Shown: positions 514 through 55,740 of the stretch, in pieces | Numbering within the stretch: the first letter of the stretch is position 1 | How the letters are laid out: every line of letters starts with the position of its first letter | Assembly: GCA_965140415.1 (NCBI GenBank) | Contig: OZ223209.1 | Span: 1,216,001 to 1,280,000 of the forward strand | Direction of reading: 5' to 3' | Origin: Myxococcota bacterium | Lineage (GTDB): Bacteria > Myxococcota_A > SURF-8 | DNA: 64,000 nucleotides | Translations under genes and position numbers: made by a program | Notes under the pieces: model-generated | Told to the model about the DNA's origin: nothing | Databases searched by the model: none | Seen by the model: only the letters and a program-made list of their open reading frames with translations

Positions 514-861
514 TGGTGGAGGCGGGGGGAATCGAACCCCCGTCCGAAATGCGTCTTGCGTGAGCGTCTACGTGCGTAGTTGATGGTTCAATCTCAATTC
601 ATCCCTCACCCATCAACAAGAGAGCAATGAATCCAGTTCGATTGATCTCGCCTCAGCAGGCTCGAACAGCGCCCGCATCGGCCAGCCATTAAATTGACGC
701 CTCTTCCCATGCAATGGCATCACAAGAGAGACGGACGGGCATTATGCCGCCATTTGGTAGTTGTTTTCGGCAATTGTATATGCCTGCCGGCTTTTACGAA
801 GATCCGGCGCTCCGGCACGCGACCCAGGCCTTCTACACCCCGTCGAAGCCATGTCGCCCCC
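514..861 (-). ncRNA. ssrA: tmRNA; resume-frame tag AENNYQMAA* (742..771)
   Basis: 5' GGGGGCG pairs with 3' CGCCUCC-ACCA with G3:U wobble; T-arm GGGGGUUCGAUUCCCCC; internal frame ends in ...YQMAA-UAA. Confidence 0.97.
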
Positions 862-19765: not shown

Positions 19766-19841
19766 AGGAGCAGGACGGGAGCCCTGCTCCTGCGTAAGGG
19801 AATCCCATAATGTTGGAGCAAAGCTCCTGTCTCGCTCCAAC
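19766..19841. repeat. REP-like palindromes (related copy at 17577-17608)
   Basis: AGGAGCAGGACGGGAGCCCTGCTCCTGCGTAA and GTTGGAGCAAAGCTCCTGTCTCGCTCCAAC. Confidence 0.75.
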
Positions 19842-19863: not shown

Positions 19864-21303
19864 CTACTCCATTTCGCTGAGCAGTTGTTCCAGGCTGCGG
19901 CCCTTTTCCTGCTCTTCCTGTTCGTATTCTTTCAGTTTGTACTGGATTTTGCGCGGGCTGATTTTCAGAACCTCGCTGGTCCGCTTGGTGGATTTACCCA
20001 TGGCCAGCCAGGTCTTAAGTAGTGCTTCCTGTTCGATTTCCTTGAGTGAGCGACCGACGATCATGCCGGTATTGCTAACGGATTCGCTCTCTTTGTGCAA
20101 GGTCGGCATGTGTTTGGGTAGGATGGTATTGCCGCGCGTCATGATGACCGCTCGTTCGATCACGTTTTCCAATTCGCGAACGTTGCCCGGCCAGTCGTAG
20201 CTCAGCGCCGTCGTCAAGACGTCGTCGTCCATGTCCTGCACTTCTTTTTTGTTCTTTTCCGCATACTTACGGATGAAGTGCTCGATCAGTAACGGGATAT
20301 CCGAGCGCCGCTCACGCAGGGGCGGCAGGTTGATCGGGATGACATTCAGGCGGTAATACAAATCCTCGCGGAAATGTCCCAGCGCGACTTCCTTGTCCAG
20401 CGGACGGTTGGTGGCGGCGATGACGCGGACATCGACCTTGATGGTTTTAGTGCCGCCGACGCGTTCGAATTCGCGCTCCTGTAAAAAGCGCAGAATCTTG
20501 ACCTGGGTGACTTCCGGCATCACGTTGACGTCATCCAAAAACAGGGTGCCGCCGTGCGCCAGTTCGAAGCGTCCTTCCCTGCGACTGAATGCGCCGGTAA
20601 ACGAACCTTTTTCGTGTCCGAAGAGTTCGCTTTCCAATAGCGTTTCGGTAAAGACCGCGCAGTTGACCTTGACGAAGGGACCGTCGGAGCGGGTGGAATT
20701 GCGGTGAATCGCTTCGCCGATCAATTCTTTTCCGGTGCCGGATTCACCGTAGATCAGCACATTGGCAGTGGAGGGCGCGACCTGCTCGATGATTTTGTAT
20801 ATTTCCTGCATATGTGGATGATTACCCACGAGCCGCTCGAACTTCTTGGTGGCTTTGAGTTGCTCGCGCAAATATTGCGTTTCCTCCAGCAGCTGCATTT
20901 TTTCAAAGGCGCGTTTGACGATCAGTTCCAGCTCATCCAGGTTCACCGGTTTGGTCAGATAGCTTTCCGCACCCAGGCTCATGGCATGCACCGCTTCCTT
21001 GATGGTACCATAGGCTGTGAAGAGCACGATCTGAATTGAAGGTCGGATTTCCTTAATCTTTCCAAGTAGTTCAATTCCGGACATTCCTTCCAGGCGAATG
21101 TCGGAAATCACGACGGAGGGTAGATGTTCCAATACGAGTTTCAAGGCATGTTCCGCACGCGCGGCTTCGAACACTTCGTAGCCGACATCGCGCAGATAAT
21201 ACGCAATGGTCGTTCGCGCGGAGGGCTCGTCATCTACCACGACGATGCGCTTGGTGATAAATTGGCGACTATCCAACCCGTCGGTCATGTCATTGTTTTC
21301 CAT
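19864..21303 (-). CDS. Sigma-54-dependent response regulator (NtrC/AtoC family enhancer-binding protein)
   Basis: REC domain (VVDDE, SDIRL, KP); GESGTGKE; ESELFGHEKGSFTGA; WPGNVRELEN; C-terminal HTH. Confidence 0.95.
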   Translation of the reverse strand: MENNDMTDGLDSRQFITKRIVVVDDEPSARTTIAYYLRDVGYEVFEAARAEHALKLVLEHLPSVVISDIRLEGMSGIELLGKIKEIRPSIQIVLFTAYGTIKEAVHAMSLGAESYLTKPVNLDELELIVKRAFEKMQLLEETQYLREQLKATKKFERLVGNHPHMQEIYKIIEQVAPSTANVLIYGESGTGKELIGEAIHRNSTRSDGPFVKVNCAVFTETLLESELFGHEKGSFTGAFSRREGRFELAHGGTLFLDDVNVMPEVTQVKILRFLQEREFERVGGTKTIKVDVRVIAATNRPLDKEVALGHFREDLYYRLNVIPINLPPLRERRSDIPLLIEHFIRKYAEKNKKEVQDMDDDVLTTALSYDWPGNVRELENVIERAVIMTRGNTILPKHMPTLHKESESVSNTGMIVGRSLKEIEQEALLKTWLAMGKSTKRTSEVLKISPRKIQYKLKEYEQEEQEKGRSLEQLLSEME

Positions 21304-21562
21304 AAGGCAATCCTAGTGATTTCAAGCAACTACAACCTATCATAGCCGGGAAGCAATCAAAGTGCAAGAAGAAAAAGAAGCTGATGCGAAAAAATTGCAC
21401 TGACATCTTCGTAGGCGCAATCCTTGCGTGTGTATTGTGCGCATCCAAGGTTTTCATTCTGCGAAAAATGAACGTGCAGTCAGTTTTTTGAGTGCTGTAT
21501 CCTGCTGTATTCATAAGGGAAATTCTAATATTAAGATCATTTAATACGGAAATCTGCATGGT

Positions 21563-21577
21563 TGGCACGGCGTTTGC
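21563..21577 (+). promoter_or_regulatory. Sigma-54 (-24/-12) promoter
   Basis: TGGCAC-GGCGT-TTGC exactly matches TGGCAC-N5-TTGC; divergent from the sigma-54 activator gene. Confidence 0.85.
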
Positions 21578-21588
21578 GTATAAATATG

Positions 21589-21820
21589 GGCGTCTGTACC
21601 GCAATGTTCATTGAACCATTTGCCTTTAGTTTGAATCCTTCGGTTGCCCCTACCGTTGGATTCTGCGGCGTTCCTGCAGTATGTAGTATGGAAGGGAACG
21701 TTGCAAGCAGATTCAACGTGCCCCCAATGTGTTGAATCTGTGTAGTACCGTAGCTCAATTAGTAATGTAGTAGACGAGCTGCGAAATTGGCGAGAGGCCT
21801 CCCCCAACTCTCGCCTTTTT
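21589..21820 (+). ncRNA. Candidate sigma-54-dependent small RNA (~230 nt, five hairpins)
   Basis: Lies between the sigma-54 promoter and a terminator, no + strand ORF of 60 aa or more in the track; repeated CCCC loops and TGTAGTA motifs; 5' end estimated from the promoter. Confidence 0.65.
21789..21820 (+). terminator. Rho-independent terminator
   Basis: GGCGAGAG-N11-CTCTCGCC-TTTTT. Confidence 0.85.
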
Positions 21821-21846
21821 CATTTTATGCCTATGATTTTTCATCT

Positions 21847-21938
21847 GTAGGATGGGCATTTGCCATGCCCATCTTTTCCGAGGTGATGGACAAAACAATT
21901 GCCTTCCGTTAGAGCCGGGCTCCCGTCCTGCTCTATAC
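21847..21938. repeat. REP-like cluster
   Basis: GTAGGATGGGCATTTGCCATGCCCATC, a degenerate inverted copy at ~21882, and TAGAGCCGGGCTCCCGTCCTGCTCTA. Confidence 0.7.
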
Positions 21939-22181
21939 GTTTTGTCTTAGTGTTCGGGACAGGAGTCTCGCCTGGAAGCCGATGGTTCAAGACAGGAGCC
22001 TAGAACCATCCAAAAAGACTTTCCAGAATTGAAATGCTCATCCCAGCGGGGCTTGTCAAGCCCTGACAAAGCAGTTATACTGGGTTATGGAAGCGCTTAT
22101 TTATGTGTGCTGACTCTCGTAACCTCCGTTGCCGCTAGGCGTTTCGCGTATCGGCGTCGGGCCAGGAGAAAGGAGACCGTC

Positions 22182-22577
22182 ATGCAATGGGTGTACCGAT
22201 GTCCGTTCTGCCAGGCACATTTGAACCCCAGCGGGGAACGGGTGGTGCTGCTGGCGGATTGCGAACTGGGTCGGGGCTTGTTCCTTTTCGACGATGAGCC
22301 CGGCAACTACGAATTGACGCTCCCTCTGGATGTCGAGGTTCAACAGGGGCAGGTGTGGGAGTTTCTTTGTCCCGTCTGTCGCAAGAACCTGACCAGCAAG
22401 GCCGATGCCAATATCGCCATGATTCGCCTGACCGACGAGCACCAGGAGGACCACGCGGTCTTTTTTTCCAAGATCGCAGGAGAACGCTGCACCTTCGTCG
22501 TAACGGCGAAGGGCGTGCAGGTTTTCGGTCCCGAAGCGGCGATGTACGAACACCTGCTCTGGAACAAATTCTTCTAG
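22182..22577 (+). CDS. Hypothetical protein with two CxxC motifs (zinc-ribbon-like)
   Basis: AGGAG RBS; CPFC and CPVC. Confidence 0.8.
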   Translation: MQWVYRCPFCQAHLNPSGERVVLLADCELGRGLFLFDDEPGNYELTLPLDVEVQQGQVWEFLCPVCRKNLTSKADANIAMIRLTDEHQEDHAVFFSKIAGERCTFVVTAKGVQVFGPEAAMYEHLLWNKFF

Positions 22578-28121: not shown

Positions 28122-28198
<77 letters not shown>

Positions 28199-43251: not shown

Positions 43252-43348
43252 GGGAATGGAAGGCTACCTGGTGGGGCCCGCGGACTTCAAATCCGTTGTA
43301 GGGCGTGAGAGCGTCCTGGGTGGGTTCAATTCCCACACATTCCCGCCA
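43252..43348 (+). tRNA. selC: tRNA-Sec (anticodon UCA)
   Basis: GGGAATG/CATTCCC-GCCA; anticodon arm GCGGA-CTTCAAA-TCCGT; long variable arm; directly upstream of selA-selB. Confidence 0.96.
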
Positions 43349-55627: not shown

Positions 55628-55740
55628 GTTGGAGCTGGGCTCCCGTCCTGCTCTATGTATTTGTCCGAATGTTGGAGCAGCGGCTCCTGCCCTGCTCCTA
55701 ATGTTTGTCTTCTTCATCAAGACAGGAGCTTTGACCATCC
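55628..55740. repeat. REP-like cluster (inverted relative to 7593-7650)
   Basis: GTTGGAGCTGGGCTCCCGTCCTGCTCTA; GTTGGAGCAGCGGCTCCTGCCCTGCTCCTAATGTTTGTCTTCTT; CAAGACAGGAGC also at ~21988. Confidence 0.8.

Follow-up and report, generated by a model that had tools for sequence, protein, structure and literature searches.

The intergenic region between the gene for an NtrC/AtoC-type response regulator and a small gene for a Zn-ribbon-like protein raises the question whether it harbours a gene for a small regulatory RNA (sRNA) and, if so, by which regulator such an RNA might be controlled and how it might act. The window, i.e., the whole stretch of DNA analysed, comprises 64 kb (contig C1, positions 1216001-1280000) of the source genome (G000), which consists of one contig of 5.98 Mb. 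For this window, an original prediction had proposed a sigma-54-controlled sRNA of a family not yet described, which would combine C-rich, Shine-Dalgarno-pairing (anti-SD) loops with a protein-binding UGUAGUA repeat. Ten genomes of one GTDB order were compared, six of which (G000 included) belong to one family and four to other families.

Organization of the locus

The predicted RNA gene and its downstream neighbour comprise the following features (positions within the window):

21563-21577, plus strand: sigma-54 -24/-12 promoter, TGGCACGGCGTTTGC, the sole perfect match in the window
21589-21820, plus strand: predicted sRNA of around 232 nt, start placed from promoter geometry, end from the U-tract of the terminator
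21606-21624, plus strand: conserved 5' box, GTTCATTGAACCATTTGCC, from the alignment of the six same-family genomes (G000-G005)
21633-21638/21658-21663, plus strand: hairpin 1, stem GAATCC/GGATTC, loop TGCCCCT (UGCCCCU in the RNA) at 21645-21651
21669-21674/21695-21700 (whole hairpin 21664-21705), plus strand: hairpin 2, stem CGTTCC/GGAACG, apical region GCAGUAUGUAGUAUGG
21708-21717/21731-21740 (whole hairpin 21707-21740), plus strand: hairpin 3, stem CAGATTCAAC/GTTGAATCTG, loop TGCCCCCAATG (UGCCCCCAAUG as RNA) at 21719-21729
21741-21747, plus strand: UGUAGUA, unpaired between hairpins 3 and 4 in the MFE fold
21749-21756/21776-21783, plus strand: hairpin 4, stem CGTAGCTC/GAGCTGCG, loop region containing UAGUAAUGUAGUAG
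21789-21796/21808-21815, plus strand: intrinsic terminator, 8-bp GC-rich stem GGCGAGAG/CTCTCGCC, 11-nt loop GCCTCCCCCAA (GCCUCCCCCAA as RNA)
22182-22577, plus strand: small Zn-ribbon-like gene, downstream of the sRNA

The -24/-12 element, described as perfect in the original prediction, is indeed the only site in the 64-kb window that matches TGGCAC-N5-TTGC without any mismatch. When up to one mismatch is allowed, six sites are found against 6.1 expected, such that the one-mismatch sites occur at chance level and only the perfect site is informative. The row of ordered hairpins followed by a terminator, which had likewise been read from the sequence, is given back by the MFE fold of positions 21589-21825 (237 nt). 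This fold has an energy of -85 kcal/mol and a z-score of -5.91, and none of 200 dinucleotide shuffles was as stable. Directly 3' of the terminator stem, a U5 tract (TTTTT) is situated at 21816-21820. A simple terminator scan did not flag the terminator (21789-21820) because its loop of 11 nt exceeds the limit of 8 set in that scan.

According to a scan for the promoter plus C-runs, the element is present as a single copy in G000. In the search for paralogues within this genome, a sigma-54-like site followed by at least three C-runs was encountered at ten places, and the form with hairpins and terminator was found only at the present locus. In its organization, the region looks like a sigma-54-driven, terminator-closed gene for a non-coding RNA.

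The adjacent regulator and its putative binding site

Upstream of the promoter, the following features are situated:

19864-21303, minus strand: gene for an NtrC/AtoC-type response regulator and sigma-54 activator of 479 aa (Pfam Response_reg, Sigma54_activat, AAA_lid_14)
21385-21400, no strand assigned: putative upstream activating site, a dyad, TGCGAAAAAATTGCAC, 178 bp before the TGG of the -24 element
21460-21468, no strand assigned: second TGCGAAAAA half-site, 103 bp before the -24 element

In the translation of the regulator, the receiver aspartate D68, the Walker A motif GESGTGKE, and the GSFTGA loop are all intact, and for the C-terminal 75 aa, a Fis-type HTH is indicated by a match to HTH_8 that is full-length but weak (E-value 0.0017) and misses the cut-off. 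Its best matches in NCBIfam are the AtoC and NtrC models, all of them below the equivalog cut-offs, and the protein is therefore regarded as a generic member of the NtrC family without assigned function. It is presumed to be the activator of the sRNA promoter. One copy of rpoN and one copy of csrA are present in G000, and hfq was not detected in this one-contig genome. Five matches to the Myxococcus cysteine-rich repeat were also noted in G000. Concerning the functional class of a sigma-54/bEBP-controlled sRNA, the promoter, rpoN, an AAA+ activator with a GAFTGA-type loop, and an upstream site are all present at the sequence level.

The motif TGCGAAAAA occurs at 21385 and at 21460; with three copies in the window against 1.46 expected, its count alone is not significant. 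The repeated upstream TGCGAAA that had been noticed before is nevertheless real, as it forms half of a conserved dyad, the copy at 21460 representing an extra half-site. The dyad, NGCG[A/C]AA-N3-TT[T/G]C[G/A][C/G], is found once per intergenic region in all nine sRNA-bearing loci among the genomes compared, at a distance of 163-186 bp upstream of the -24 TGG in each of them. The pattern itself was composed after inspection of the sequences, whereas the constant distance is an independent, unselected part of the observation and renders the dyad convincing as the putative binding site of the activator. We infer that the regulator binds this dyad. Additional GCGAAA/TTTCGC half-sites exist in G002, G003, G006, and G009.

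Occurrence in related genomes

Within the order, orthologues of the regulator (60-75% identity) are clearly separated from its paralogues (at most 45%). It had been suggested to look for the promoter, the hairpins, and the terminator beside orthologous regulators, and the divergent regulator and the RNA were found together in nine of the ten genomes, with 63-76% identity of the regulator and the nine RNAs spanning four families. In the eight relatives of G000 among these nine, an equivalent -24/-12 element is found at the same position. Throughout, the element is made up of a -24/-12 site, placed 232-311 bp away from where the regulator starts, a non-coding part of 129-295 nt, and a terminator; in G005, the copy was found on a second contig. 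The exception is G007, where a protein gene is situated in this place and no such promoter was found within 9 kb; its regulator is the most divergent one (54-60% identity). The proposed tie of the sRNA to the divergent NtrC-family regulator is strengthened by this co-conservation as well as by the fixed distance of the dyad.

The flanking genes are not conserved. TrkH and TrkA follow the regulator on the same strand in G000 only, such that a conserved synteny with these two genes was rejected, and the genes downstream of the RNA differ between the genomes. Therefore, the pair of regulator and RNA constitutes the conserved unit. This bears on the idea that the hairpins form a conditional terminator through which the RNA, as a leader or attenuator, would control the downstream gene (22182-22577) in cis. 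The RNA and this gene lie on the same strand, and read-through of the terminator would be possible in principle; however, the next start codon lies around 360 nt beyond the terminator, and this gap holds a second terminator-like hairpin (21851-21877) as well as a hairpin element belonging to a dispersed repeat. Furthermore, the downstream position is occupied by a Zn-ribbon-like gene in G000, by that for a CHASE4 sensor in G004, by that for a HisKA kinase in G006, and by others elsewhere, whereas the RNA remains beside the regulator throughout. A leader function is thus highly improbable.

An even smaller probability is assigned to a gene for a small protein, or to a non-functional intergenic remnant with chance features. 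Mechanically, open reading frames of 57 aa on the plus strand and of 73-88 aa on the minus strand can be drawn. The frame on the plus strand, however, starts within the promoter, the homologues differ in length from 129 to 295 nt, and no conserved peptide was found among the nine homologues, the matches between close relatives being short and frame-switching. The earlier description of the stretch as free of open reading frames is supported by this lack of a conserved frame. Chance features are excluded, since promoter, dyad, C-loops, and terminator are shared by members of four families. From these sequence comparisons, the locus is very probably a regulator-coupled sigma-54 sRNA gene, and we treat it as a strong candidate for such a gene in the following.

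Outside the order, 301 genomes sampled from the phylum contained regulator homologues of at most 55% identity, the best ones being 50-55% identical. In 21 flanks of these homologues, no RNA with promoter and C-runs was found, and 20 of the 21 flanks, which were scanned with Rfam, contained none of its sRNAs. Other searches differ in their reach. A regulator search of genome contigs led to G001 alone. When 40 relatives were searched by blastn with the 291-nt locus as query, G001 alone was matched, and there only in its terminator; true homologues were missed in this way, and the negative results of blastn are thus no evidence of absence. The covariance model R1, for which the promoter, the 5' box, and hairpin 1 were taken from the six same-family genomes, recovered among 151 genomes just its six training genomes and missed the homologues in G006, G008, and G009, such that it cannot show absence elsewhere. 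One further match of R1, in G011 (23 bits), possesses neither a -24/-12 element nor a C-run and was taken as false. With a degenerate terminator pattern, at least 80 loci were obtained from metagenome contigs; all of those listed are GC-rich chance matches without promoter, and the four listed loci with T-tails were inspected and rejected. As far as searched, the sRNA family appears restricted to one order-level lineage.

Conserved features of the RNA

The nine RNAs, with a total length of 1,817 nt, contain 32 runs of at least four C (C4-7, between three and six runs per RNA). In the MFE folds, none of the 32 runs is paired, and 28 lie within hairpin loops, such that the C-rich loops singled out in the original prediction represent a conserved hallmark of the family. 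A run of at least four G is found only once in the nine RNAs, and this asymmetry of C over G fits the direction of promoter and terminator. The C-runs continue with UA in ten of the 32 cases (type CCCC(C)UA or CCCC(C)UAC, as in hairpin 1) and with AA in six (type CCCCCAAUG); loops of the latter sequence are also found in G002 and G004. The C-run loop of hairpin 1 exists in all six genomes of the family, with comparable hairpins in the other three, and the terminator loop is C-rich in all nine RNAs. The 5' box, with the consensus GYUCAUUGAAYCAYUUGCC, is nearly invariant in G000-G005 and absent from G006, G008, and G009.

Concerning secondary structure, the folds of the nine homologues have z-scores between -5.1 and -9.2, and for each of them none of 100 shuffles was as stable. 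Between genera, the stems diverge in sequence, whereas the loops persist. The terminator stem is kept in the nine homologues, four of its eight pairs exhibiting compensatory changes and none being broken. When the MFE structure of G003 was mapped onto its congener G005, eight of 11 changed pairs were found to pair still, against 4.0 in the null expectation (P about 0.016). Between G006 and G009, five of ten changed pairs were kept against 3.2 (P 0.18). In these counts of mapped pairs, the structure was predicted from one sequence only; pair counts from a consensus structure are biased toward the consensus. With only nine homologues from four families, the covariation statistics are weak, and the support that the mapped pairs give to the structure is modest.

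Possible mode of action

Regarding its function, the RNA is, as we tend to believe, a trans-acting sRNA dependent on sigma-54 and on the activator but independent of Hfq, the C-loops of which would pair with G-rich ribosome-binding regions; for the narrower statement that it acts through base pairing of the C-loops, by analogy with other sRNAs, our confidence is similar or very slightly lower. As sequence and co-conservation suggest, a sensor kinase would phosphorylate the receiver domain of the divergent NtrC/AtoC-type activator (19864-21303), which would bind to the dyad around 178 bp upstream and to the half-site at around -103. Its AAA+ ATPase would then open the complex of the sigma-54 holoenzyme at the -24/-12 promoter, and transcription would end at the intrinsic terminator. 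By analogy, the three C4-5 runs in loops (UGCCCCU, UGCCCCCAAUG, and GCCUCCCCCAA) may serve as redundant seeds, which would pair without Hfq to G-rich ribosome-binding stretches of several mRNAs, as conceived from stem-loop 1 (SL1) of the sRNA Pxr of Myxococcus and from other C-loop sRNAs. Such pairing might lower the translation or the stability of the targets. The 5' box, found in the family only, and the AGUA-type loops, found in G000 and G001 only, could constitute additional, younger specificity elements.

The original prediction had addressed the C-rich loops as anti-SD loops in general. G000 uses the canonical GGAGG, and the term applies strictly only to CCUCC, which is contained in the terminator loop; most of the loops read CCCC(C)UA or CCCCCAA and match G-runs instead of the GGAGG core. 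In a search for possible targets, the word GTAGGGG was found at 189 sites, 15 of which are in an SD-like position (7.9%), compared to 3-6% for control words, i.e., an enrichment of at most twofold in a crude scan with small numbers. Among 14 candidate targets with ATG start, picked by hand from those listed, Pfam annotation revealed no functional theme.

That a coherent set of mRNA targets did not emerge would be expected from a protein-sequestering sponge RNA, in which the C-runs (and the AGUA loops in G000 and G001) titrate an RNA-binding protein as in CsrB/RsmZ or CrcZ, promoter and regulator being the same as described above. The variation in the number of motif copies (three to six per RNA), with the motif itself kept, is in line with this idea, and the recurrence of one loop on different stems is just as typical of RNAs that act as protein sponges. 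The UGUAGUA motif belongs here as well: TGTAGTA is found at 21682, 21741, and 21766, and these three, out of four copies in the window, fall into a segment of 91 nt, while 1.25 copies would be expected window-wide. In G001, four successive hairpins with different stems carry near-identical AGCAGUAUC loops, which points to hairpin duplication and to selection on the loop. In the sub-lineage of G000 and G001, the UGUAGUA repeat is real and probably functional.

However, AGUA occurs five times in the RNA of G000, five times in that of G001, twice in that of G003, and not at all in the other six of the nine RNAs. Being confined to G000, G001, and, weakly, G003, it is not a feature of the family, such that the two-motif design does not hold as a family property, nor does the protein-sponge role of UGUAGUA find support in the form in which it had been put forward. 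Motifs of the known sponges were not found either: GGA in loops, as in CsrB/RsmZ, is absent although csrA is present, A-rich repeats, as in CrcZ, are absent and hfq was not found, and the loops carry C-runs or AGUA instead. Furthermore, no global regulator in bacteria is known to bind C-runs or AGUA. The precedent of Pxr does not discriminate between pairing and sequestration. On balance, we regard a sponge function as unlikely and prefer base pairing of the C-loops with G-rich mRNA regions.

Comparison with known systems

In the whole window, only tmRNA and two tRNAs reach the gathering score of Rfam 15. At positions 21300-22200, Rfam models yielded with E-values up to 10 only noise from eukaryotic miRNA and snoRNA families of at most 18 bits, and at the eight homologous loci nothing was matched at the sRNA with E-values up to 1. 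The claim that the RNA does not belong to a known family is thus borne out by the covariance-model check on the locus and its eight homologues. The most likely assignment, judged from sequence features, is a new, uncatalogued sRNA family of a known kind, with sigma-54/NtrC-type control, multiple C-loops, and a mode of action without Hfq.

If this is true, a well-defined regulatory RNA is added to a lineage for which experimental genetics hardly exists, and the promoter, the activator, the activator-binding site, the seeds, and the terminator would all be legible from sequence. Beside Pxr, it would constitute a second, independent case in which a C-loop sRNA is driven by a sigma-54/NtrC-type switch in a bacterium that lacks Hfq. 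It would open to test what C-run loops bind without Hfq, whether the Pxr module is older than thought, and the growth of sRNAs by hairpin duplication (129-295 nt, three to six C-runs). The conserved dyad together with the promoter could furthermore serve as a portable inducible expression module in these organisms.

Sigma-54-dependent sRNAs under the control of a response regulator of the NtrC family are represented by Qrr with LuxO in Vibrio and by CrcZ with CbrB in Pseudomonas, where crcZ adjoins cbrB. Qrr, however, needs Hfq, whereas hfq was not found in G000, and CrcZ is an A-rich sponge for Hfq/Crc. Both differ from the RNA described here in the lack of C-run loops, and neither was matched by Rfam at the present locus. 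The multi-loop C-seed logic assumed here is the same as in sX13 of Xanthomonas, which reportedly acts independently of Hfq and possesses three stem-loops with C-rich loops (4-5 C) pairing with G-rich motifs near translation starts. For sX13, which belongs to another phylum, no sigma-54 promoter and no activator of its own next to the gene are known, and no Rfam match to it was obtained here at E-values up to 10.

Repeated C-rich loop motifs acting as anti-SD seeds are also found in RsaE of Firmicutes, in the 6C RNA of Actinobacteria, and in the alpha-proteobacterial CCUCCUCCC 'cuckoo' RNAs. RsaE/RoxS, 6C, and the CCUCCUCCC 'cuckoo'/NfeR1 RNAs are unrelated in sequence to the RNA described here, gave no Rfam match, and are under other transcriptional control, a sigma-54 promoter not being known for them. 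For RoxS and NfeR1, C-rich unpaired loop motifs are described as anti-SD seeds (PMC8216469, PMC10746234).

For an sRNA with C-rich loops that is driven by sigma-54 beside its activator, nothing closer than Pxr with PxrR (Nla19)/PxrK of Myxococcus xanthus and other Cystobacterineae was found in the literature, and no Rfam accession for Pxr was found there. The comparison with Pxr is based on its published description, a primer, and a probe. According to this description, pxr possesses a predicted sigma-54 promoter and an upstream enhancer region (PMC5684412) and is situated directly downstream of, and in the same direction as, the NtrC-like gene pxrR (nla19), before a gene for NADH dehydrogenase (PMC5568312, PMC5684412). 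PxrR controls the synthesis of Pxr, and the RNA consists of three stem-loops with an intrinsic terminator (PMC5684412, PMC5568312, PMC11928866). A single change of C to A in the first loop abolishes its function, and the myxobacteria are described as lacking hfq (PMC5684412, PMC5568312). Pxr is said to be confined to the Cystobacterineae (PMC11928866), and the literature views it as a recent invention of this group.

The 26-nt Pxr probe found no match with up to three mismatches in any of 301 genomes, G000-G009 included. The 21-nt primer on SL1 matched in 61 of 401 genomes, all at three mismatches except one at two, and none at the sRNA loci; as a control, the pattern read backwards also matched in dozens of genomes, i.e., at chance level.

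As judged from these accounts, there are some differences between the two systems. Whereas pxr and pxrR run in the same direction, RNA and regulator diverge in the nine loci described here, and the neighbours are different ones. Pxr has a length of around 110 nt and one C-loop, compared to 129-295 nt and three to six C-runs in the present family, and its terminator loop is not C-rich, in contrast to the C-loop terminator found here. That regulator and C-loop sRNA form an old, self-contained cassette of a deep lineage labelled Myxococcota, which shares its ancestry with Pxr/PxrR and grows by hairpin duplication, the RNAs of G000 and G001 working in a dual mode (pairing with G-rich mRNA and titration of an AGUA-binding factor), is a speculative idea, to which we give still less weight than to a pure sponge.

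Despite these differences, both systems share, as far as the published descriptions of Pxr extend, a predicted sigma-54 promoter, an enhancer region upstream of it, an adjoining gene for an NtrC-like response regulator, and a multi-stem-loop RNA with an intrinsic terminator and a C-run in its first loop, in a host without hfq. The first loop of Pxr, as read from the published primer and probe, comprises six C between UU and A and thereby differs in one base from the loop of hairpin 1 in G001, UUCCCCCUA. Pxr of Myxococcus is thus the closest known system, and it is Pxr to which the sRNA described here would, by analogy, be most similar in the way it works.

3' end of the sRNA and its homologue in G001

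The terminator stem of the predicted sigma-54-controlled sRNA is followed on its 3' side by two further elements:

21816-21831: CATTTT(T)ATGCC tail, abutting the 3' side of the terminator stem (also in the relatives' loci L005, L007 and L008)
21851-21877, same strand as the sRNA: second terminator-like hairpin, 30 nt past the sRNA terminator

The tail is common to G000 (the genome of the window), G002, G004 and G008 despite different flanking genes, and may either belong to the RNA's 3' end or serve as a processing site. The hairpin consists of a 9 bp stem (GATGGGCAT/ATGCCCATC) with the loop TTGCC and is followed by TTTT. Concerning the sRNA itself, the homologue in G001, a genome of the same family (L006:903-1197, minus strand), measures 295 nt and contains four hairpins in succession, the stems of which are unlike while the AGCAGUAUC loop is identical, an apparent case of sRNA growth via hairpin duplication.

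Neighbouring genes and possible control of the activators

No kinase is adjacent to the regulator-sRNA module in G000. In two relatives, a sensor gene begins just 3' of the sRNA, and both products are candidate cognate sensors:

L008:3566-4363 (G004): CHASE4-domain sensor
L009:3562-4344 (G006): HisKA histidine kinase

On the other side, a conserved protein follows the regulator:

L003:10398-12605 (G001)
L008:3-1385 (G004)

These two proteins share 53-56% identity, have no Pfam match whatever, and possess two homologues elsewhere in G000 (G000:C1:4974363-4976252). In G164, a genome from outside the order, a sigma-54-like site is situated directly 5' of the start codon of a 55%-identical regulator homologue (L018), which suggests that some activators of this kind are themselves sigma-54-dependent.

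Genomic context and flanking repeat

The whole G000 genome (one contig, estimated completeness 93.7%) yielded no match to the Hfq family; it carries csrA and one rpoN, as well as five matches to the Myxococcus-type cysteine-rich repeat TIGR02232 across three reading frames. Other RNA genes in the window are:

514-861, minus strand: tmRNA
28122-28195, plus strand: tRNA
43252-43344, plus strand: selenocysteine tRNA

The module is bracketed by two copies, in inverted orientation, of a dispersed repeat that measures about 100 nt and consists of two GC-rich hairpins; the list also gives a copy from elsewhere in the window:

19768-19839: first flanking copy
21898-22008: second flanking copy
near 55637: further copy

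The inverted arms are complementary at 83% over 36 nt and at 73% over 26 nt. The 17-nt core of the repeat occurs eight times in G000. The repeat may be REP- or MITE-like.
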